A stretch of DNA of 64,000 nt, from NCBI GenBank assembly GCA_963827655.1, contig CAWHCF010000044.1, positions 71,242 through 135,241 of the forward strand, written 5' to 3'. Position numbers and translations under genes: made by a program. The notes under the pieces are model-generated. The model was not told the origin of the DNA and made no database searches. It saw only the letters and a program-made list of their open reading frames with translations. Within the stretch, counting starts at the first letter, position 1. Each line of letters begins with the position of its first letter. Source of the stretch: an uncultured Acidobacteriota bacterium (GTDB lineage: Bacteria > Acidobacteriota > UBA6911). Shown here one piece after another: positions 18,259 to 38,180 of this stretch.

Positions 18259-18789
18259 ATGAGCCCGTCAAGCCATGGCTTCCTGGTGATGGACGCCTCG
18301 CTCAAGCTGATTTATGCCAATGCTGAAGCCATCCATATCTTGGTCTACCCGGAAAATCCTCAAAAGGTAAAGTCGCTAGACAGCCTTCTCGCCGAGAAGA
18401 TCCGAACAGTCCTCCTCAAGCAACCGTCGTCACCGAAGGCCGGCTTCGTCGCCGAGCTCAGGTCGGGAAGGAGGCGCTACCTGTGTCGCGCATTTTCTCT
18501 TAATCCTTACTCGAAGAATCCTGGTGGCCAGGAAAGTCTGGCCATTCAGTTCGAACGAACCCGTCAAGTGACCTTGAACGGTTCCCAGATTGCCGAGAGA
18601 TTCAACTTGACCCCGCGGGAACAACAGACGCTCGAATACCTGATCCAGGGGCTGACCAGTAAGGAAATTGCAGACCGAATGCATATCAGCGTCAATACAG
18701 TGAAAGCCTTTCTCAGGCTGATCATGGTGAAAATGGGGGTCACGACCCGATCGGGAATCGTTGGCATGCTGTTCGAGGTCAGACCATAG
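18259..18789 (+). CDS. LuxR/GerE-family transcriptional regulator with an uncharacterised N-terminal domain (EpsA-like polysaccharide-locus regulator)
   Basis: C-terminal HTH LTPREQQTLEYLIQGLTSKEIADRMHISVNTVKAFLRLIMVKMGV. The N-terminal 110 aa carry no recognisable receiver or PAS signature. It sits divergently from the HAD gene, at the head of the polysaccharide locus. Confidence 0.8.
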   Translation: MSPSSHGFLVMDASLKLIYANAEAIHILVYPENPQKVKSLDSLLAEKIRTVLLKQPSSPKAGFVAELRSGRRRYLCRAFSLNPYSKNPGGQESLAIQFERTRQVTLNGSQIAERFNLTPREQQTLEYLIQGLTSKEIADRMHISVNTVKAFLRLIMVKMGVTTRSGIVGMLFEVRP

Positions 18790-18879: not shown

Positions 18880-19206
18880 TTGTCGCGGCCGATGAAGCCC
18901 CAGCAAGATCCGGACAGGCGCCAACACGCCCGGTACCCTCTAACGCGAGACCTGAAGATCCAGGTACTTCCTTTGCTCCGCTCCTCGAGTAAAAAGCGAG
19001 TGGAGATTCAGGGCCGGGTTCAAAACATTGGCGCCGGGGGCTTATGCCTTACCACCAGCCAGCCTCTTGAGGTCTACCGTCCCGTTTTGTGCGACATCCC
19101 TCTTTCTGCGGTCCCCGTCAAAATCCCGATCCTTATGCAGGTCCGCTGGGCTGTGAAGAGCTCAACCGGTGATCGTTTCAGAGTCGGCCTCCAGTTCCTT
19201 CTTTGA
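18880..19206 (+). CDS. Stand-alone PilZ-domain protein (putative c-di-GMP receptor)
   Basis: RxxxR motif (RRQHARYPL) and a D/NxSxxG-like motif (VQNIGAGGLCL) at PilZ-typical spacing. TTG start at 18880 (alternative ATG at 18892); AAAGGGG SD upstream. Confidence 0.65.
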   Translation: MSRPMKPQQDPDRRQHARYPLTRDLKIQVLPLLRSSSKKRVEIQGRVQNIGAGGLCLTTSQPLEVYRPVLCDIPLSAVPVKIPILMQVRWAVKSSTGDRFRVGLQFLL

Positions 19207-19860
19207 TCACGTTGGCGCTATAGAACAGGTGTCTGTTATGAAAGGGTTGATTCAGCGGGTGCGCAGCCGGAGAGAGTATCTAACCCGAATGGACTAACCC
19301 GCCAGGCTAATTCCTCCGGAGAGTTGAAATGTTCGGGGATGTGTCCGACTATAACGCAATACGCTTGATGATTAGTCGAGCACGACCCCGCTCAACAACG
19401 CCGTGAGGAAGGGGCATGAGGGTGCGAGACGCTGGAATTATTTAGACGATGGTTTTTGCATCAGGGAACTTGATTTATTCACTTGACGACGTAAGGGCAA
19501 GGTTGTTGTAATAAAGCACCCTCTCATCGCGCTGCCCTTGGGCAGCCTAATGCCCTGAATAAACCTGCTGGAGTTTTTCGCTCCGATCGTGCGGCTTTGA
19601 GGCCCGCCGTTTCGCATACCTAAAGGCACCATGTACGAGATCATTTTCTCCAGATCTACGCGCGGCTCCTGTTCGTACTGGTCCGGTAGGGGCCAAGAAA
19701 ACCATCGAGACGAGACCTGGGGGCTACAAGCGCGATCTGAAGCTCGGCCCAAAGAATTGACCGATGGTGAAACGTCCGGCATGGCACCTGGCACAATGAA
19801 CACAGAACCAGTAGCCGGCGGTTTGCGGTGGGATAGATCTCGGACTCTGGCGTTTTTTTT

Positions 19861-19878
19861 GCTTCCATCGATGGTAGC
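19861..19878. repeat. Palindromic element copy 1: GCTTCCATCGATGGTAGC (perfect 10-bp palindrome CCATCGATGG), preceded by a T8 run
   Basis: Seen directly. A near-identical copy lies 90 bp downstream. Candidate dimeric-regulator operator. Confidence 0.45.
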
Positions 19879-19950
19879 CCGTGCAAGAAAAAAGAAAATT
19901 GCAACTCGCGGAACGTTGGTGAATCAGCTTTACGGACTTTGAAGTTTTTC

Positions 19951-19970
19951 GTTTCCATCGTTGGTGATGC
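19951..19970. repeat. Palindromic element copy 2: GTTTCCATCGTTGGTGATGC (CCATCGTTGG), preceded by a T5 run
   Basis: Direct repeat of the 19861-19878 element (TTCCATCG[A/T]TGGT[A/G] shared), same orientation, 90-bp spacing. Confidence 0.45.
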
Positions 19971-20204
19971 GCAGTAAAAGGAACTTGAAACCATTGGTGT
20001 GTTATTGAATCAAGTTCCTCGATTCTCACTCGCTTCTGGTGTTTATTGGTTGGGTAAGAGGAATCCGGCCGCAGGGCGGATTTTCTCAGCCGACCGGGGC
20101 GAAAAGAGCTAAGATAGGGGATGGCGCGATGCCACACTTCATGTGGCTACTGGTAAAAGCGGAGCGCTGTCACCAAGATATCGAGTCTGCCTATGGGACT
20201 CAAA

Positions 20205-20217
20205 GGGCGGTAGTGCC
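20205..20217 (+). promoter_or_regulatory. ops-like element GGGCGGTAGTGCC (E. coli ops consensus GGCGGTAGCGTG), about 90 nt upstream of the RfaH/UpxY-like gene
   Basis: GGCGGTAG core at 20206-20213 on the coding (non-template) strand of the leader. 9/12 match to the RfaH recruitment site. Could be chance in a GC-rich genome. Confidence 0.3.
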
Positions 20218-20301
20218 TACTCCGGAACGGCAGTCGAGTTTGGTCCTTAGGTCGGAAAACAAAGAAAGGGCGGGGTTTTGCGTCCTTATGAAGGGGTTGC
20301 A

Positions 20302-20904
20302 ATGAACGCGCTCGTAAGCGGTTCCTGGTACGCCTTGCGAATCAAATCGCGTCACGAAAGGATCGTGGCCGCGGCCCTGAACGGCAAGGGATACGAGGTA
20401 TTTTTACCGCTTTATCGAGACCGGCGCCGCTGGTCCGACCGCATGAAAGAGGTCGAACTCCCCCTGTTCCCGGGTTATTTGTTCTGCCGGTTTGATGCGA
20501 TGAAGCGCCTCCCCATTCTCATGACCCCGGGAATTGTTCAGCTCGTCGGAGTGGGGAAAAGCCCGCATCCAATTGAAGAGACAGAAATTACTGCCATCCA
20601 GTCCATCGTGATTTCGAGGCTCAACGCGCAGCCCTGGCCCTATTTACAGGTCGGGCAAAAAGTCCGCATTGAGCAGGGACCACTTACCGGCCTGGAGGGA
20701 ATCCTAATTGCTTTGAAAAAAACGCATCGCCTTGTCGTCTCGGTTACGCTTCTCCAGCGTTCCGTTGCGGTGGAGGTGGATCATGATTGGGCGAGCCCAG
20801 TTTTGCCTGACCAGCCAGGGCGGGGAAAGGTTGCAGCTTCGGCTGCGACACATGTCGCCACCAGTAACGCGGTGTGGGCTTCGCCTGAGACAATGATACG
20901 GTAG
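20302..20904 (+). CDS. NusG-paralog specialised antiterminator (RfaH/UpxY/LoaP family), first gene of the polysaccharide operon
   Basis: NGN domain WYALRIKSRHERIVAAALNGKGYEVFLPLY ... ELPLFPGYLFCRFD (compare RfaH PLFPNYLFVEFD). KOW domain QVGQKVRIEQGPLTGLEGILIAL. AAGGGG SD 6 nt before the ATG at 20302. The track start 20278 is probably too early. Confidence 0.8.
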   Translation: MNALVSGSWYALRIKSRHERIVAAALNGKGYEVFLPLYRDRRRWSDRMKEVELPLFPGYLFCRFDAMKRLPILMTPGIVQLVGVGKSPHPIEETEITAIQSIVISRLNAQPWPYLQVGQKVRIEQGPLTGLEGILIALKKTHRLVVSVTLLQRSVAVEVDHDWASPVLPDQPGRGKVAASAATHVATSNAVWASPETMIR

Positions 20905-20948
20905 GCAAGTGCCTGCCACTTTTTACCTGGTACTTTTGAGGAAGAGTT

Positions 20949-21998
20949 ATGAGGATCGCGAAGTTGAGTAGCCTGCTGGTTTTTGTGCCCCTACTGGGCC
21001 TTACCCTGGGCTTAGCCTTTCAGCAAAGGGTTTCCGAGATCAAGCCTGAGCCCCAGCAACCGGTACCCCAGCAAGCGGTAACCGAGACCAAGCCTGAGAA
21101 CGCGCCTGCGGCGATGAAAGTCGAGAATCGCAAGTACATCCTGGGACCCGACGACGACATCACTATCCAGGCGTTAGATGCTGATGAGATTTCCAACAAG
21201 CCCGTCCGCATCGACACCAGCGGAAATATCAATCTACCGCTGGTAGGGCGACTGCGCGCGGCCGGTCTCACGGTCGAGCAGCTCGAAGCTGAGATTGCGG
21301 CACGTCTCCGCACCTATATCCAGCAGCCGCATGTGGCGATCAGCGTCACCAACTTTCGCAGCCAGCCCGTGTCGGTGCTCGGAGCGGTGCGCAGCCCTGG
21401 AATTCACCAGCTCCAGGGACGAAAGACCTTGTTCGAGATTCTTTCCATGGCCGGGGGTCTTGCGTCGGAAGCGGGACACAGTGTAAAGATCACCCGCCAG
21501 ATGGAGTGGGGACCCATTCCCCTCCCCTCCGCCACAACGGATCCTACAGGGAAGTTCAGCATCGCTGAAGTCAAGCTGAGGGCGATTCTGGAAGCCAGGA
21601 ATCCTGAAGAGAATATCCTGATCCAGCCTCACGATATTATTTCGGTCCCGCGCGCCGAACTGGTCTACGTGGTCGGGCAGGTTCGCAGACCCGGTGGGTT
21701 TGTCCTGAACGACCGTCAGAGCATTTCAATCCTCCAAGCTCTGGCGATGGCCGACGGGTTGACCAATATTTCGTCTGCAAAGAATGCCAGGATCATTCGC
21801 TCCACTGTCGGCGAGAATCGCGTCGAGATTCCGGTCAACCTGAAGTCGATTTTCGAGGGCAAATCGTCGGACGTTGCTCTGAAGGCGGATGATATTCTCT
21901 TCATTCCCACCAACGTGGCAAAGGGAGTATTCTTCAGCACCATTCAGACGGCAATTTCGGCTGCCACGTCCGCAGTCATCTACGGCGGTATGTACTGA
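20949..21998 (+). CDS. wza: Polysaccharide export outer-membrane protein, Wza/EpsA family (Poly_export + SLBB domains)
   Basis: Signal peptide; Poly_export block YILGPDDDITIQALDADEISNKPVRIDTSGNINLPLVGRLRAAGLTVEQLEAEIAARL; two SLBB-like repeats (VSVLGAVRSPG / VYVVGQVRRPG). Confidence 0.9.
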   Translation: MRIAKLSSLLVFVPLLGLTLGLAFQQRVSEIKPEPQQPVPQQAVTETKPENAPAAMKVENRKYILGPDDDITIQALDADEISNKPVRIDTSGNINLPLVGRLRAAGLTVEQLEAEIAARLRTYIQQPHVAISVTNFRSQPVSVLGAVRSPGIHQLQGRKTLFEILSMAGGLASEAGHSVKITRQMEWGPIPLPSATTDPTGKFSIAEVKLRAILEARNPEENILIQPHDIISVPRAELVYVVGQVRRPGGFVLNDRQSISILQALAMADGLTNISSAKNARIIRSTVGENRVEIPVNLKSIFEGKSSDVALKADDILFIPTNVAKGVFFSTIQTAISAATSAVIYGGMY

Positions 21999-26995: not shown

Positions 26996-28117
26996 GTGAC
27001 TTCCATTCGCTCAGTTCTGGCCCTGATCGCCTCCCTGGCCGGTTTGCTTCTGGCGGCTCCAATTGTCGTGCTTGGTCTCCCCTTCTGGGCGGTAGCCTGG
27101 CTGACCAAGCGAATCACCGGATTGCTGGAACCGGAGATCGTGCTCTGGGACCAGCTCATAAGATTCGACCCGACCTTCGGCTGGAAGCCGAAGGCGAACC
27201 TGAATACTCACTGCGTTTCAGAGTTGGGAGGCGAGGTCTTTCACGTAACGACCGATTCTGAGGGATGGCCGGGAGCGTCCACGATCGACGAGAGCTCAAT
27301 CACGGTCTTCGGCGACTCCTTCGCTTTCGGTTACGGAGTGAACGCTGAGGCCTTGTTTTCCGAGGTCAATCCTAAACTCCGCGTCAAAGCCATCGGAGCT
27401 CCCGGCTACAACATGGTTCAGGAAGTGATGTGGATGGATCGATTGTCGTCCCATCTCAGAGGGAAGCTCGTCGTTTGGTTTATTTATGTTGGCAACGATC
27501 TGTACGAGAACCTGCAGCCAAACATGCAGGATTACCGAACGCCTTTTGTGCGCCGTGCCGGTTCGACCGGTGAGTGGCAGATCGTCACCAGCCATCTCAG
27601 CTCGTCGAGGTGGTGGCCGTATCACGTGAATGACAAGTTGAGGTCCGCTCAGAGATTCGCCGCAATCTTCGGGACATCCTTCTTGTCAGAGCGGGTCTAT
27701 TCGGCCTGCGAGTTTCTGATCAGAAAAGGAAACAATATCTGTGCGCACGCCGGCGCCTCGCTGGCAGTCACTACAATACCCATCATAGATCAACTGAGCT
27801 TGAATGGCTGGAAACAGCGAATATCTGAGCTGGGATATCCGGAATCTCTCGACCTCAACCAGCCGGACCGTAAAATCGCCGAAATCTGCTCGACGTTGGG
27901 AGTCCGCTTCGTCGCAGGAAAGGACCACCTCAATGCCCGGCATTTCATTCCGGCAGACGGTCATTGGAATGAAAAGGGGCATCAAAGAATAGCGGATCTG
28001 CTGGCCGAGCTTCATCAACAGCGGCACCCGGCGGCCCGGAACGATACTGATCCGGAACTGCGTCTCTCACACGCGCAAAAACGCCCGACGGGCACGTTTC
28101 AGTGGCGCACCGATTGA
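26996..28117 (+). CDS. SGNH/GDSL-fold hydrolase or acyltransferase with N-terminal membrane anchor (paralog 1)
   Basis: Block I VFGDSFAFGYGV (GDS nucleophile), block V DGHWNEKGH (DxxH). GTG start at 26996 chosen because the track ORF overlaps the previous gene with no internal ATG. N-terminal hydrophobic anchor LALIASLAGLLLAAPIVVLGLPFW. Confidence 0.7.
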   Translation: MTSIRSVLALIASLAGLLLAAPIVVLGLPFWAVAWLTKRITGLLEPEIVLWDQLIRFDPTFGWKPKANLNTHCVSELGGEVFHVTTDSEGWPGASTIDESSITVFGDSFAFGYGVNAEALFSEVNPKLRVKAIGAPGYNMVQEVMWMDRLSSHLRGKLVVWFIYVGNDLYENLQPNMQDYRTPFVRRAGSTGEWQIVTSHLSSSRWWPYHVNDKLRSAQRFAAIFGTSFLSERVYSACEFLIRKGNNICAHAGASLAVTTIPIIDQLSLNGWKQRISELGYPESLDLNQPDRKIAEICSTLGVRFVAGKDHLNARHFIPADGHWNEKGHQRIADLLAELHQQRHPAARNDTDPELRLSHAQKRPTGTFQWRTD

Positions 28118-35424: not shown

Positions 35425-35842
35425 AATCGCTGAACCGCTTTACCTCTATCGCATCCAGCCGAATTCGATGTGCCGAAGCACAGACTTTCGGCGCCAGGGA
35501 CTTCGAGCGCGCGCCAAGTATGCCCCTGAAACCGTCGATCCTTCGGCACAAGCCAGGGACGAAGTCAGCGCCTGGGCTTTTATTCTAGGGCTGGAGCTCT
35601 TGGCCCGGAATGGACCGGGTGTCCGCCAGGCGGCGGACTACCTCGAAGCAAACAGGAACAAAGGCGAATTGGGCCAGATGGCTGAGCTACTTCCCGACGG
35701 CTGGGCTATCAATACTACAGATTGTGGGACTGCTCCGGGTTCCGGTACCGGCACAGGCCCGATTGGGAAACTCTTTTCAAGCCTCTTATGGAACCGGAGC
35801 CGCGCGAAATCCCCGGACGTACGCTCGTTGAAACTTGTTAGT

Positions 35843-36928
35843 ATGAAAAGTGCTTCGGGCGAAATCTCCTCATTCGTCGGATCAAAAGTGAACACCAATA
35901 GCAATCAACCCATAGAGAACCAGGACACTTCGTGCCTGATCGTCGCAGAGGTGGCTCAGGCACACGACGGCAGCCTCGGCATGGCCCACGCCTATATAGA
36001 TGCGGCAGCAAACGCCGGAGCCGACGCAATCAAGTTCCAGACCCATATCGCCGCGGCGGAATCGACTCCAGGAGAGCCGTGGCGCGTAAAGTTCAGCCCG
36101 CAGGACGCGACCCGCTACGACTACTGGAAGCGAATGCAGTTTACCGAAGACCAGTGGCGAGGTCTCAAGCGCCACGCTTCGGAGCGCGGCTTGAAGTTTC
36201 TCAGCTCCCCTTTTTCTCTCGAGGCTGTACAGCTCCTCAATCGTGTAGGAGTCACAGCCTGGAAGGTGGCTTCCGGCGAGGTTAACAACACCTCGATGTT
36301 GCAGTGTATGGCTGCCACGGGTCTGCCCATACTTCTGTCGACCGGGATGAGTCCTCTGCCCGAAATCGATTTCGCTGTAGATCGAGTGAAGCAATATGGC
36401 CTGCCCCTTACGCTGCTGCAGTGCACCACGGCCTACCCCTGTCCGCCGGAAAAGGTCGGGCTGAACCTGATACCGTTTTTCCGGGCGCGTTATGGCTGCC
36501 AGGTCGGCCTGTCGGATCACTCGGGAACCATCTACGCCGGTCTTGCGGGCGCCGTTCTTGGGATCGCTGTTCTGGAAGTGCACGTCACTCTCAGCCGGGA
36601 GATGTTCGGACCCGACGTTCCGGCCTCGATTACGACCACCGAGCTGCGCCAACTGGTCGCCGGCATCCGCTTCATAGAGAAGATGATGGCGAATCCGGTC
36701 GACAAGGATGCCATGGCAGTGGAGATGGCGCCTTTGCGGAACCTCTTTACCAAGAGCATTGTTCTCTCATCGGACTTGCCTGCGGGCACCGTGCTGCGAA
36801 AAGAACACTTGACCATCAAGAAGCCAGGAACCGGCATTCCCGCCGACAGGCTACCCGAACTCGTAAGCCGCACGCTAAAACGAGCGGTAACCGCTAACAG
36901 CTTGCTTTCGGAAGACGACCTTGCCTAA
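35843..36928 (+). CDS. neuB: NeuB/PseI/LegI-family nonulosonic (sialic-type) acid synthase with C-terminal SAF domain
   Basis: CLIVAEVAQAHDGSLGMAHAYIDAAANAGADAIKFQTH (NeuB N-terminal signature), then LSDHSG, and a SAF domain (VLSSDLPAGTVLRKEHLTIKKPG). The track ORF starts at 35468; its first 125 codons are GT2 run-on and linker, so Met at 35843 is used. Confidence 0.8.
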   Translation: MKSASGEISSFVGSKVNTNSNQPIENQDTSCLIVAEVAQAHDGSLGMAHAYIDAAANAGADAIKFQTHIAAAESTPGEPWRVKFSPQDATRYDYWKRMQFTEDQWRGLKRHASERGLKFLSSPFSLEAVQLLNRVGVTAWKVASGEVNNTSMLQCMAATGLPILLSTGMSPLPEIDFAVDRVKQYGLPLTLLQCTTAYPCPPEKVGLNLIPFFRARYGCQVGLSDHSGTIYAGLAGAVLGIAVLEVHVTLSREMFGPDVPASITTTELRQLVAGIRFIEKMMANPVDKDAMAVEMAPLRNLFTKSIVLSSDLPAGTVLRKEHLTIKKPGTGIPADRLPELVSRTLKRAVTANSLLSEDDLA

Positions 36929-38180
36929 TTCGCTACGCCGTAAAATATGTGTTGTTCTGGTTGACCGGGCTAACTATGGCCGCCTGAAGCCGGTCATGAA
37001 GGCTATCGCAGACCGGCCAGAGCTTGAACTCCAGGTTCTTGCCGCCGGAACGATGGTCCTGGAACGCTTTCAGCAGCCTGTGCACGTTGTGAAACAGGAC
37101 GGCTTCTCTGTGGACGGCGAGATCTACATTGAACTGGAAGGCTCCACCCCGGCCACCATGGCAAAATCCGTCGGTTTCGGCGTCGTGGAGTTCGCAAGCG
37201 AGTTCCAGCGGCTCAAACCGGATCTGGTGCTGGTCATCGGCGATCGATACGAGGCGCTGGCGGCCGCTATCGCTGCTGCGTATATGAACATCTGTATCGC
37301 CCACATACAGGGTGGCGAGGTTTCCGGATCGATTGACGAAAGCGCGCGCCATGCGATCACACGATTTGCGCATTTCCATTTTCCGAGCACGAGGCGTTCC
37401 GCGGAGTATCTGGTTCGCATGGGAGAAAATCCGAAGACGATTCTCGCCCTAGGGTGCCCCAGCAGCGATATCGCTCGCGACCTCGATCGAACGCTTCCGC
37501 CCTCAGCGATCAATGCCCTGGGCAGCGGCGCGGCGATCGATCTCTCCGATGCGTTTCTCCTGGTGGTCTTTCATCCCACGACCACGGAATACGGAGGAGA
37601 GCGCCGGCAGATGGAGGAGGTTCTCGAGGCCCTCGATAACATCCAGCGTCAGACCGTTCTCCTCTGGCCGAACATTGATGCCGGAGCCGATCACATCAGC
37701 AAGGCGATTCGAACCTTTCGCGACCGGGTGAAACCAGCCTGGCTCCATGTCATAACGAACCTGAGCCCGGAGGATTATCTGAAGGTGCTGGCCCATGCCT
37801 CCTGCGCCGTCGGGAACTCCAGCAGCTTTGTGCGCGATGCCAGCTATTTCGGAACGCCGGTGGTTTTAGTGGGAAACCGGCAGGATGGACGCGAGACCGA
37901 CCAGCACGTCATGCCCGTGCCTCCTCTGGCCGCGGAGATCACTGCCGCAATACGCGAGCAACTTGCGCATGGACCCTATGCTCCCAGCAGCCTTTACGGA
38001 GATGGACATGTCTCCGAACGAATTGCCGAGGCGCTCAGCCGCCTCACTCCCTATGTTCAGAAGCGCCTGAGCTACATGGGGCAAGGTAAAGCCGAGTTTG
38101 TCGAGCGCGCTTCCCAAACCACGGATCTCAAATCGAGCGACGATCTTGCCTCAAGCTGGGCGCTGCATTCTTCGGATTAG
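36921..38180 (+). CDS. neuC: UDP-N-acetylglucosamine 2-epimerase (hydrolysing), NeuC family
   Basis: KICVVLVDRANYGRLKPVMKAI ... DLVLVIGDRYEALAAAIAAAYMNICIAHIQGGE ... HFHFPST, the NeuC/Epimerase_2 pattern. TTG start; overlaps the neuB stop by 8 nt. Confidence 0.8.
   Translation: MPNSLRRKICVVLVDRANYGRLKPVMKAIADRPELELQVLAAGTMVLERFQQPVHVVKQDGFSVDGEIYIELEGSTPATMAKSVGFGVVEFASEFQRLKPDLVLVIGDRYEALAAAIAAAYMNICIAHIQGGEVSGSIDESARHAITRFAHFHFPSTRRSAEYLVRMGENPKTILALGCPSSDIARDLDRTLPPSAINALGSGAAIDLSDAFLLVVFHPTTTEYGGERRQMEEVLEALDNIQRQTVLLWPNIDAGADHISKAIRTFRDRVKPAWLHVITNLSPEDYLKVLAHASCAVGNSSSFVRDASYFGTPVVLVGNRQDGRETDQHVMPVPPLAAEITAAIREQLAHGPYAPSSLYGDGHVSERIAEALSRLTPYVQKRLSYMGQGKAEFVERASQTTDLKSSDDLASSWALHSSD

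Follow-up and report, generated by a model that had tools for sequence, protein, structure and literature searches.

Results

The leader and its operon

The DNA analysed here, a 64-kb window (64,000 nucleotides, nt) on contig CAWHCF010000044.1 from an uncultured Acidobacteriota bacterium, carries a polysaccharide operon whose first gene encodes a specialised paralog of NusG, and the leader of this operon contains a short sequence resembling ops, the element read by RfaH in E. coli. Specialised paralogs of NusG serve to switch on long operons for capsules, toxins or antibiotics. To our knowledge, a detailed picture of how they find their operons exists for E. coli RfaH and, since 2024, for Bacteroides UpxY only. 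Acidobacteriota are an abundant soil phylum, and gene regulation in them has been little studied.

The paralog gene (20302-20904, + strand; 200 amino acids, aa) was identified as a NusG paralog with Pfam and assigned to the UpxY family with NCBIfam models. It is followed by an array of polysaccharide genes (20949-41462, +), all co-directional, which is the presumed target of the factor. The array extends to at least 41.5 kb and encodes, among others, a Wza-like export protein, a Wzc-like tyrosine kinase, a carbamoyltransferase, PGA_cap, FemAB-like and GT2 proteins, NeuB, a UDP-GlcNAc 2-epimerase and a glycerophosphotransferase; it is a long polysaccharide operon. Its second gene product is the Poly_export/SLBB (Wza-like) protein and not UpxZ. 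The order NusG paralog, Wza, Wzc and carbamoyltransferase, all on the + strand, is repeated in the related locus L161 and on the P0005 contig. Internal promoters could lie in the intergenic gaps of 200-350 nt that occur near 28.1, 29.8 and 40.0 kb.

The motif, GGGCGGTAGTGCC, occupies 20205-20217 (+), with its core GGCGGTAG at 20206-20213. The original prediction for this DNA had described an ops-like motif that matches the E. coli element in 9 of 12 positions, including the whole core, and on re-checking both the coordinates and the match proved exact. The window 12-mer GGCGGTAGTGCC (20206-20217, +) agrees with E. coli GGCGGTAGCGTG at positions 1-8 and 10, and departs from it at position 9 (T, not C), position 11 (C, not T) and position 12 (C, not G); its predicted pause nucleotide is position 11, at 20216. 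The motif had also been placed 90 nt upstream of the NusG paralog, after a probable promoter and before the first gene of the operon. The leader position ahead of the first gene was borne out, with a measured distance of 88 nt from the end of the core to the ATG at 20302; the probable promoter was not, as none was identified in the window.

The core lies within an extended element of 24 nt, TGGGACTC-nAAn-GGCGGTAG-C-n-T, called the composite below and located in the window at 20194-20217. A matrix of this element finds one strong match in the window, at these very positions, with a score of 27.5; the next best scores 4.4. The 8-nt core taken by itself occurs three times in the window (20206 +, 26182 - and 27088 +) against 1.41 expected, and three or more copies were reached in 16 of 100 window shuffles, which is not above chance. 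Since the window statistics alone prove nothing, the case for the motif rests on the comparison with relatives.

A second ops element inside the operon, GGCGGTAGCCTG at 27088-27099 (+), was considered and rejected. It lies 6.9 kb into the same operon, within a coding sequence (GTG start at 26996) in which it encodes FWAVAW, and it lacks the upstream block, although it is closer to the E. coli consensus than the leader copy. Core copies inside the operons are not enriched across the family (16 forward, 20 reverse), and this one is probably a chance match. A relative of 96% identity also keeps it, but is too similar to be informative.

Conservation in related leaders

Two sets of 80 loci entered the comparison, one from metagenomes (49-95% identity) and one from distinct reference species, the latter almost all Acidobacteriota (Terriglobia, including Bryobacterales and Acidoferrales; Solibacteraceae; Vicinamibacteraceae). 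A total of 157 loci were usable, the window included; the paralog family as a whole numbers more than 7,800 homologues at E<=1e-10. In 110 of the 157 loci the coding strand has the exact core no more than 300 nt ahead of the orthologous gene; the opposite strand has it there in none (0/157). The remainder of these loci contains 36 copies in 798.5 kb, counting both strands (0.0225 per kb per strand). This gives a chance expectation of about 0.007 per leader and places the leader frequency about 100-fold over background. Among the 47 loci without the exact core, 25 hold the same composite with a single core substitution, at matrix scores of 11-33 compared with a null distribution of best scores in 300 nt of coding DNA (mean -17, maximum -4.6). 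With these one-mismatch variants the composite is present in 134 of the 157 leaders, that of the window among them.

The distance from element to gene varies between 51 and 168 nt across the relatives, and flanks more than about 12 nt from the core carry close to 0 bits and are otherwise unalignable. Because of these featureless flanks and the variable distance, the conservation reflects selection and not descent of the leader as a whole from a common ancestor. The closest relatives (L001, L002, L003 and L161) all retain the composite, and in L003 the sequence just downstream of it (20218-20250) has diverged. At the level of sequence, the comparison confirms that the motif is real and strongly conserved, in a strand- and leader-specific manner. 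Lack of conservation in orthologous leaders had been named in the original prediction as what would speak against it; the core, in this sense, is kept in about 85% of the 156 related loci.

Six composite-bearing loci (L084, L131, L114, L126, L097 and L160) come from metagenome-assembled genomes labelled as other phyla, namely Vulcanimicrobiota (Ca. Aquilonibacter, Ca. Cybelea), Dormiibacterota or Chloroflexota (Limnocylindrales). Horizontal transfer, mis-binning or mislabelling could account for these labels. In 2.9 million viral contigs the exact composite has four matches, and no NusG-like gene was found near any of these four.

Architecture of the composite

The position matrix was built from 97 unique core-anchored contexts, and invariance and pairing were counted in 115 aligned leaders. 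The upstream block TGGGACTC (20194-20201, +) has the family form T-G-G-G-A-C-T-C, in which T G G G A C T carry 1.3-1.8 bits each; with a pause at position 11, it would span -23 to -16. It is separated from the core by the spacer AAAG (20202-20205, +; in the family n-A/T-A-n, with a moderate preference for A), whose length is fixed at 4 nt in all composite sites. In the core itself C3, G4, A7 and G8 are invariant (115/115 leaders), as is no other column. Position 9 is C in 94 of the 97 contexts and position 10 varies freely; only pyrimidines stand at position 11 (T in 80, C in 17), and purines at position 12 in 74 contexts, which gives the family 12-mer consensus GGCGGTAGC-n-T-(G/A/C). The exact E. 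coli ops 12-mer is present in L017. A consensus pause has the shape G(-11)G(-10)...Y(-1)R(+1), and the retained G1 and G2 together with the pyrimidine at position 11 reproduce it.

On E. coli ops, RNA polymerase pauses at U11 and RfaH delays its escape at G12/C13. In E. coli, the substitutions G4C, A7T and G8C abolish RfaH recruitment and C3G reduces it, with pausing unaffected, and G12C removes the pause at U11 but not recruitment (PMC5995543). The per-position conservation seen here parallels this functional map of ops.

Positions 2 and 9 could pair as G:C in 111 leaders, as G:U in three and as A:U in one, and positions 3 and 8 as C:G in all 115; these two pairs correspond to the mini-hairpin described for E. 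coli ops. The consensus pairs returned by RNAalifold are limited to the same two, with an energy of -1.19 kcal/mol. T9 is typical of the clade of the window, and L003 combines it with A2, one compensated change that is only suggestive.

Core substitutions fall mostly at positions 5 and 6, the bases that RfaH reads specifically. GGCGGCAG occurs in five loci (L008, L086, L087, L138 and L139), together with a single TGCGGCAG; GGCGGGAG in eight (L024, L026, L031, L042-L044, L053 and L055); and GGCGATAG in four (L019, L020, L023 and L151). Position 1 is substituted as T/AGCGGTAG, and GGCGAAGC, found only in L047 and L058, resembles the one-base-shorter loop of Bacteroides. The paralogs of the GGCGGGAG clade carry G28E, R69C, L70R and P71S, and those of the GGCGGCAG group have T or S at residue 25. 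As each variant is essentially confined to one clade, covariation of protein and DNA specificity is only a lead.

A scan of 849 kb of the related loci revealed 13 further composites. Two head second NusG paralogs that are 46% identical (L089:625; L105:409), and six head a protein of about 395 aa (L134:5507, L141:4145, L155:3945, L159:6002, L148:5200 and L140:5947). The L141 copy of this protein is a Pfam-confirmed PF02397 (Bac_transf) sugar transferase, whose N-terminal sequence is shared by those of L134, L148, L155 and L159 and probably by that of L140. An opposite-strand composite heads a divergent Wzz chain-length gene (L109:2534(-)), and two further copies (L082/L085:3575) stand just after the paralog gene, ahead of an open reading frame of 107 aa. 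In several loci with extra composites the paralog has none of its own. The arrangement suggests that the composite may act in trans as well as in cis, on several transcription units, and resembles the multi-operon use of ops in E. coli.

The paralog and the residues that could read the site

The window protein matches the Pfam NusG N-terminal domain at E 3.6e-19 and the UpxY-family model NF033644 (NCBIfam) at 112.2 bits over a cut-off of 100, along its full length (1-161 of 164). It fails both RfaH models (TIGR01955, 86.8 against 144.5 bits; NF006534, 54.9 against 124) and the LoaP model NF033641 (65.4 bits against a cut-off of 125). In phmmer searches of solved structures it reached E of about 5e-4 with E. 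coli RfaH chains and about 1e-6 with NusG. By these model scores the paralog is a member of the UpxY family and not an RfaH.

RfaH contacts ops through the side chains of K10, H20, R23 and R73 (PMC5995543). An hhalign alignment places these at K15, A25, G28 and P76 of the window protein. Across the 101 family proteins that accompany an exact core, the K10 equivalent is R or K in 91, the H20 equivalent is variable, the R23 equivalent is G or N, and the R73 equivalent is P in 100. The motif had been described as containing the core that RfaH reads: the core is indeed identical, but reading in the manner of RfaH does not hold here, with three of the four ops-contacting side chains absent. What is invariant in the family is R69 and a basic beta-hairpin, R42 R43 W44 S45 D46 R47 x K49. 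This RRWSDRxK hairpin is analogous to the basic (class-1) hairpin of Bacteroides UpxY, which has been proposed to position the upstream DNA.

The autoinhibited, alpha-helical KOW domain of RfaH, which refolds, requires E48, I93 and F130. In this family the equivalent of E48 is L, V or Q. AlphaFold2, run on an alignment of 22 sequences, predicted the KOW domain as a five-strand beta-barrel with a predicted local distance difference test score (pLDDT) of 82-90, a single-state prediction with which fold switching is still compatible.

Promoters and hairpins around the composite

Of 95 unique leaders, 38 have a canonical sigma-54-type promoter (TGGCA-N9-TGC) ahead of the composite, and a second count gave 49 of 116; the background is 0.019 per 90 nt. 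The C at -12 of these sites is mostly 32-48 nt upstream of G1, such that in the transcript the 12-mer would span roughly +21 to +37. In the relatives with such a promoter, about 40%, the composite is thus placed in the early transcript. Examples with the promoter 30-50 nt upstream are L010, L012, L017, L095, L126, L134 and L160. Many of these exopolysaccharide (EPS) operons thus appear, from their promoter sequences, to be sigma-54 dependent. In the window itself, a scan of 19200-21000 gave no match to a sigma-70-type promoter, and a GG-N10-GC candidate at 20152-20165 scores as background on a sigma-54 matrix. A weak promoter candidate, GGGGATGGCGCGATGCC at 20117-20133, is conserved in L003.

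The composite itself was considered as a sigma-54 promoter and rejected. A matrix derived from 49 canonical sites of these loci, which themselves average 19.1, gave the composites a mean of -6.9, compared with -7.3 for random GG-N10-GC sites. Relative to the sigma-54 consensus (-24 TGGCAC, -12 TTGC), the G at -24 is T in 13% of the composites, G stands in place of C at -23 and G in place of T at -14.

A stem-loop in which the block forms the 3' arm can be drawn in the window (GAGTC 20183-20187 with GACTC 20197-20201; 20183-20201, +), but it is unsupported. Four near-null tests likewise lent little support, as a general feature, to a pause hairpin in the upstream RNA that would use TGGGACTC for its 3' arm, and this reading was set aside. 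Hairpins with at least five of the seven block bases in the 3' arm are drawable in 61 of 95 leaders, and the best-helix count was 6.0, compared with 5.0 for shuffled sequence and 5.3 for a reversed arm. The minimum free energy of the whole segment had z = -0.40. Constrained folding against shuffled partners gave a family mean z of -0.31 (Wilcoxon p 0.003), with 9% of sites at p<=0.05 and z 0.0 for the window. RNAalifold found no consensus upstream helix. As both the hairpin-arm and the sigma-54 explanations failed, the block is conserved as primary sequence.

No known RNA family in Rfam reaches threshold in the window leader, and JUMPstart (RF01707) has no match there at E<=10. The best JUMPstart score among nine related loci was 22.1 bits against a threshold of 35, and was driven by the 13-mer itself.

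Other features of the region

Further upstream, 190-350 nt from the motif, are two 21-nt direct repeats 90 nt apart, TTTTTTGCTTCCATCGATGGT (19855-19875) and TTTTTCGTTTCCATCGTTGGT (19945-19965), the first of which contains the palindrome CCATCGATGG (19861-19878), and a perfect 10-bp inverted repeat, AGGAACTTGA-N21-TCAAGTTCCT (19979-19988 / 20010-20019). These repeats are conserved in L001-L003 and have the appearance of binding sites for regulators. Closer to the motif, about 120 nt before it, is a hairpin, AATCCGGCC-GCA-GGGCGGATT followed by TTTTCTC (20061-20084, +), a possible terminator or attenuator whose arms show a compensated change in L003 (AATCTGG...CCAGATT). The sequence AAAGGGCGG occurs twice in the leader, 63 nt apart (20202-20210 and 20265-20273); the second of these copies runs on as GGGTTTTGCG; it does not resemble ops, and L003 does not keep it.

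A terminator-like hairpin, GGTAGGC-AAGT-GCCTGCC followed by ACTTTTT (20900-20917, +), overlaps the stop codon of the paralog gene ahead of the export gene, and L001 keeps its stem with a different loop. A conserved terminator between the paralog and export genes, as a target of antitermination, was rejected, as one was found in 3 of 154 loci, equal to the control rate.

Genes for a LuxR/GerE-type regulator (18259-18789) and a PilZ-domain protein (18880-19206) lie directly upstream of the leader. They are syntenic in L161, and the whole arrangement, these two genes included, is syntenic in the 96%-identical relative. Their presence hints at control of the EPS locus linked to cyclic di-GMP. Inside the operon, the genes for a NeuB-family synthase and a UDP-GlcNAc 2-epimerase (35468-38180) suggest that the polysaccharide contains a nonulosonic (sialic-acid-like) sugar.

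Discussion

A putative pause and loading signal

We propose that the motif is the core of a 24-nt pause and loading signal of the ops type, TGGGACTC-N4-GGCGGTAG-Y-N-Y, for the UpxY-family paralog encoded behind it, and we put the probability of this at roughly 70%. That the motif serves to recruit the downstream NusG paralog or as a pause site had been suggested in the original prediction, an interpretation supported by a core conserved in a manner specific to both strand and leader. According to this model, RNA polymerase would slow in the leader at about position 11 of the 12-mer. The non-template strand of the bubble would then present GGCGGTAG, with C3:G8, together with G2:Y9, able to form a small hairpin of the ops type, and TGGGACTC would fall within the duplex upstream, at 16-23 bp from the active site. 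The N-terminal domain of the paralog would bind the paused complex in place of the housekeeping NusG and travel on with the polymerase, which, once loaded, would resist pausing and termination across an operon of more than 20 kb. Since the factor is encoded behind its own site, such a circuit would be self-reinforcing.

Several points weigh against this proposal. The evidence for a pause or loading site is comparative and computational throughout, and the composite is missing from 23 of the 157 leaders. The window copy departs from the family consensus at positions 9 (T), 11 (C) and 12 (C), and given these atypical positions its pause may be weak; it has the C12 with which the E. coli element loses its pause at U11, though not recruitment. 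No promoter was identified upstream in the window, so that we infer the transcription of this copy. On the side of the protein, the equivalents of H20, R23 and R73 are absent and only that of K10 is kept, which leaves no reading surface that can be named, and the AlphaFold2 model supplies none because its N-terminal domain is poor (pLDDT 44-63, mean 58). The role given to TGGGACTC follows from its position only.

A further point is that a strand-specific signal fits DNA and RNA alike, since non-template DNA has the sequence of the nascent RNA. The conserved sequence might hence act as RNA, UGGGACUC-N4-GGCGGUAGC, either bound by the paralog or another RNA-binding factor or forming a regulatory structure, and the strand-specific conservation would fit this equally well. 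The 2:9 pair moves by way of G:U in the clade of the window to A:U in L003, a path more typical of RNA, and in one subgroup the block could, by eye, pair with the downstream Shine-Dalgarno region. Action as RNA is the main alternative to our proposal, but we nevertheless consider it unlikely. No structure beyond the 2-bp mini-stem was supported (-1.19 kcal/mol, with z of -0.31 and -0.40 in the folding tests), the conservation is one of primary sequence with almost no covariation, and the paralog falls below the LoaP cut-off (65 against 125). Moreover, there is proof from E. coli that the identical core is recognised in the form of non-template DNA (PMC5995543), and in Bacteroides the factor reads the upstream part of its site in duplex DNA rather than in RNA (PMC11685472).

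It is also conceivable that the composite is a duplex site used at initiation, a sigma-54-like promoter or an operator for a conventional transcription factor, and that its likeness to ops is a coincidence. TGGGAC-N8-GGC does have the GG-N10-GC spacing of sigma-54 geometry, and the window lacks an identifiable promoter upstream. In a subgroup of 35 loci, moreover, the motif lies 54 nt from the W9 codon, and a start about 12 nt after C3 would yield a plausible 13-nt leader with a Shine-Dalgarno sequence. The sigma-54 matrix, however, scores the composite like random sites (-6.9 against -7.3), with deviations at the diagnostic bases -24, -23 and -14, and sigma-54 leaves the invariant G4-G8, the free position 10 and the pyrimidine at 11 unexplained. 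In 49 of 116 leaders a true sigma-54 promoter already stands upstream, with the composite inside the transcript, and the site is non-palindromic and never occurs in the opposite orientation ahead of the paralog gene. We therefore regard a role at initiation as improbable. More improbable still, in our view, is that the family element is real elsewhere and the window copy is decayed or a chance occurrence without function. Such a view could draw on the chance frequency of the 8-mer in the window, on the deviations at positions 9, 11 and 12, and on the better 12-mer GGCGGTAGCCTG, which is evidently a chance occurrence inside a coding sequence. It has to contend with a full composite, unique in the window, with TGGGACTC and the 4-nt spacer intact, which is kept in L001, L002, L003 and L161 even where 20218-20250 has diverged in L003. 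T9 is found in the crystallised E. coli ops oligonucleotide as well (PMC5995543), and L003 pairs its T9 with A2.

Significance of a shared core

In the published model, sequence-specific reading of ops arose late, within the proteobacterial RfaH lineage (PMC7593976, PMC7819879). Here the same core is under strong selection in another phylum, beside a paralog without the reading residues of RfaH, and is fused to an upstream block in a design like that of Bacteroides. Either the origin of ops is then much earlier, or there has been convergence driven by what a paused polymerase can present. A broader and tentative idea, which we would rate as possible but on the doubtful side, is that GGCGGTAG is an ancient or convergently re-invented boarding signal for NusG paralogs across phyla, read in Acidobacteriota by a different surface. 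If so, R69 and the RRWSDRxK hairpin would replace H20, R23 and R73, and the upstream-duplex block would extend the signal. GGCGGCAG, GGCGGGAG and GGCGATAG would be specificity changes that co-vary with residues 25, 28 and 69-71, that is, a natural specificity code for this factor family. The natural variants at positions 5 and 6 could be used to dissect specificity, and the 24-nt pattern should predict the regulon of the factor, its EPS and capsule operons, in Acidobacteriota.

Comparison with known systems

The composite shares with E. coli RfaH/ops (JUMPstart, RF01707) an identical GGCGGTAG, the same invariant positions (3, 4, 7 and 8), free position (10) and pyrimidine (11), a location on the coding, non-template strand of the leaders of polysaccharide operons, and the heading of several transcription units. 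It differs in that RfaH is a stand-alone gene whereas the factor here is encoded in cis as the first gene, in the extra conserved 8-nt upstream block and in a JUMPstart model that stays below threshold. The protein differs as well, lacking the H20, R23 and R73 contacts and E48, and with a KOW domain that is predicted as a beta-barrel.

LoaP, known from Firmicutes and other phyla, has been proposed to bind a hairpin in leader RNA. The systems are alike in that a NusG paralog encoded in cis controls a long biosynthetic operon through a leader element, but in place of the RNA hairpin there is here a signal conserved in sequence, without a supported hairpin. With sigma-54 promoters (-24/-12) the composite has in common the GG-N10-GC spacing, and true sites often lie just upstream of it in the relatives, whereas the composite itself scores as background on the sigma-54 matrix.

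The best reading is that the element is closest to opsX of Bacteroides. Bacteroides UpxY is recruited at leader opsX sites of about 40 bp (Saba et al. 2024, PMC11685472). These consist of a non-template hairpin, YGCGNAGCR, sequence-specific contacts of the N-terminal domain with the upstream duplex, and an RNA pause hairpin that ends at -9 to -16 and is stimulated by NusA (PMC11685472). Their upstream-duplex part was mapped by substitutions at -16 to -18, -24 to -26 and -34 to -36 and by footprints at -21, -24 and -31 to -34 (PMC11685472). The two systems share an NCBIfam model, the place of the factor as first gene of a capsule or EPS operon and a site in its own leader. Both sites are multipartite, with a part at -11 to +1 that would be presented on the non-template strand here as well and a conserved segment in the region of the upstream duplex (-16 to -24). 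TGGGACTC, at -23 to -16, overlaps the proximal contact zone of Bacteroides by position alone, and nothing is conserved at -31 to -34. There are differences as well. The acidobacterial core, GCGGTAGC/T, has the two-base loop of the E. coli form, and the loop of YGCGNAGCR is shorter by one base; in Bacteroides the second gene encodes the inhibitor UpxZ, which is absent from this operon. Bacteroides has many locus-specific variants per genome, in contrast to one near-uniform signal across species here, and opsX requires a nascent-RNA pause hairpin, for which no statistical support was found here. The invertible promoters of Bacteroides have their counterpart in sigma-54 promoters in many of the relatives.

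In the literature that we searched, the coverage of which is incomplete, we found no paper that connects Acidobacteria with ops or RfaH. As a kind of system, the loading of a specialised NusG paralog at a leader signal is already known. What is new is the E. coli core under selection in Acidobacteriota, beside a UpxY-family protein that is K10-like and lacks R73, and so too are its fusion to a conserved upstream block, the frequent sigma-54 promoters and the natural variants at positions 5 and 6.

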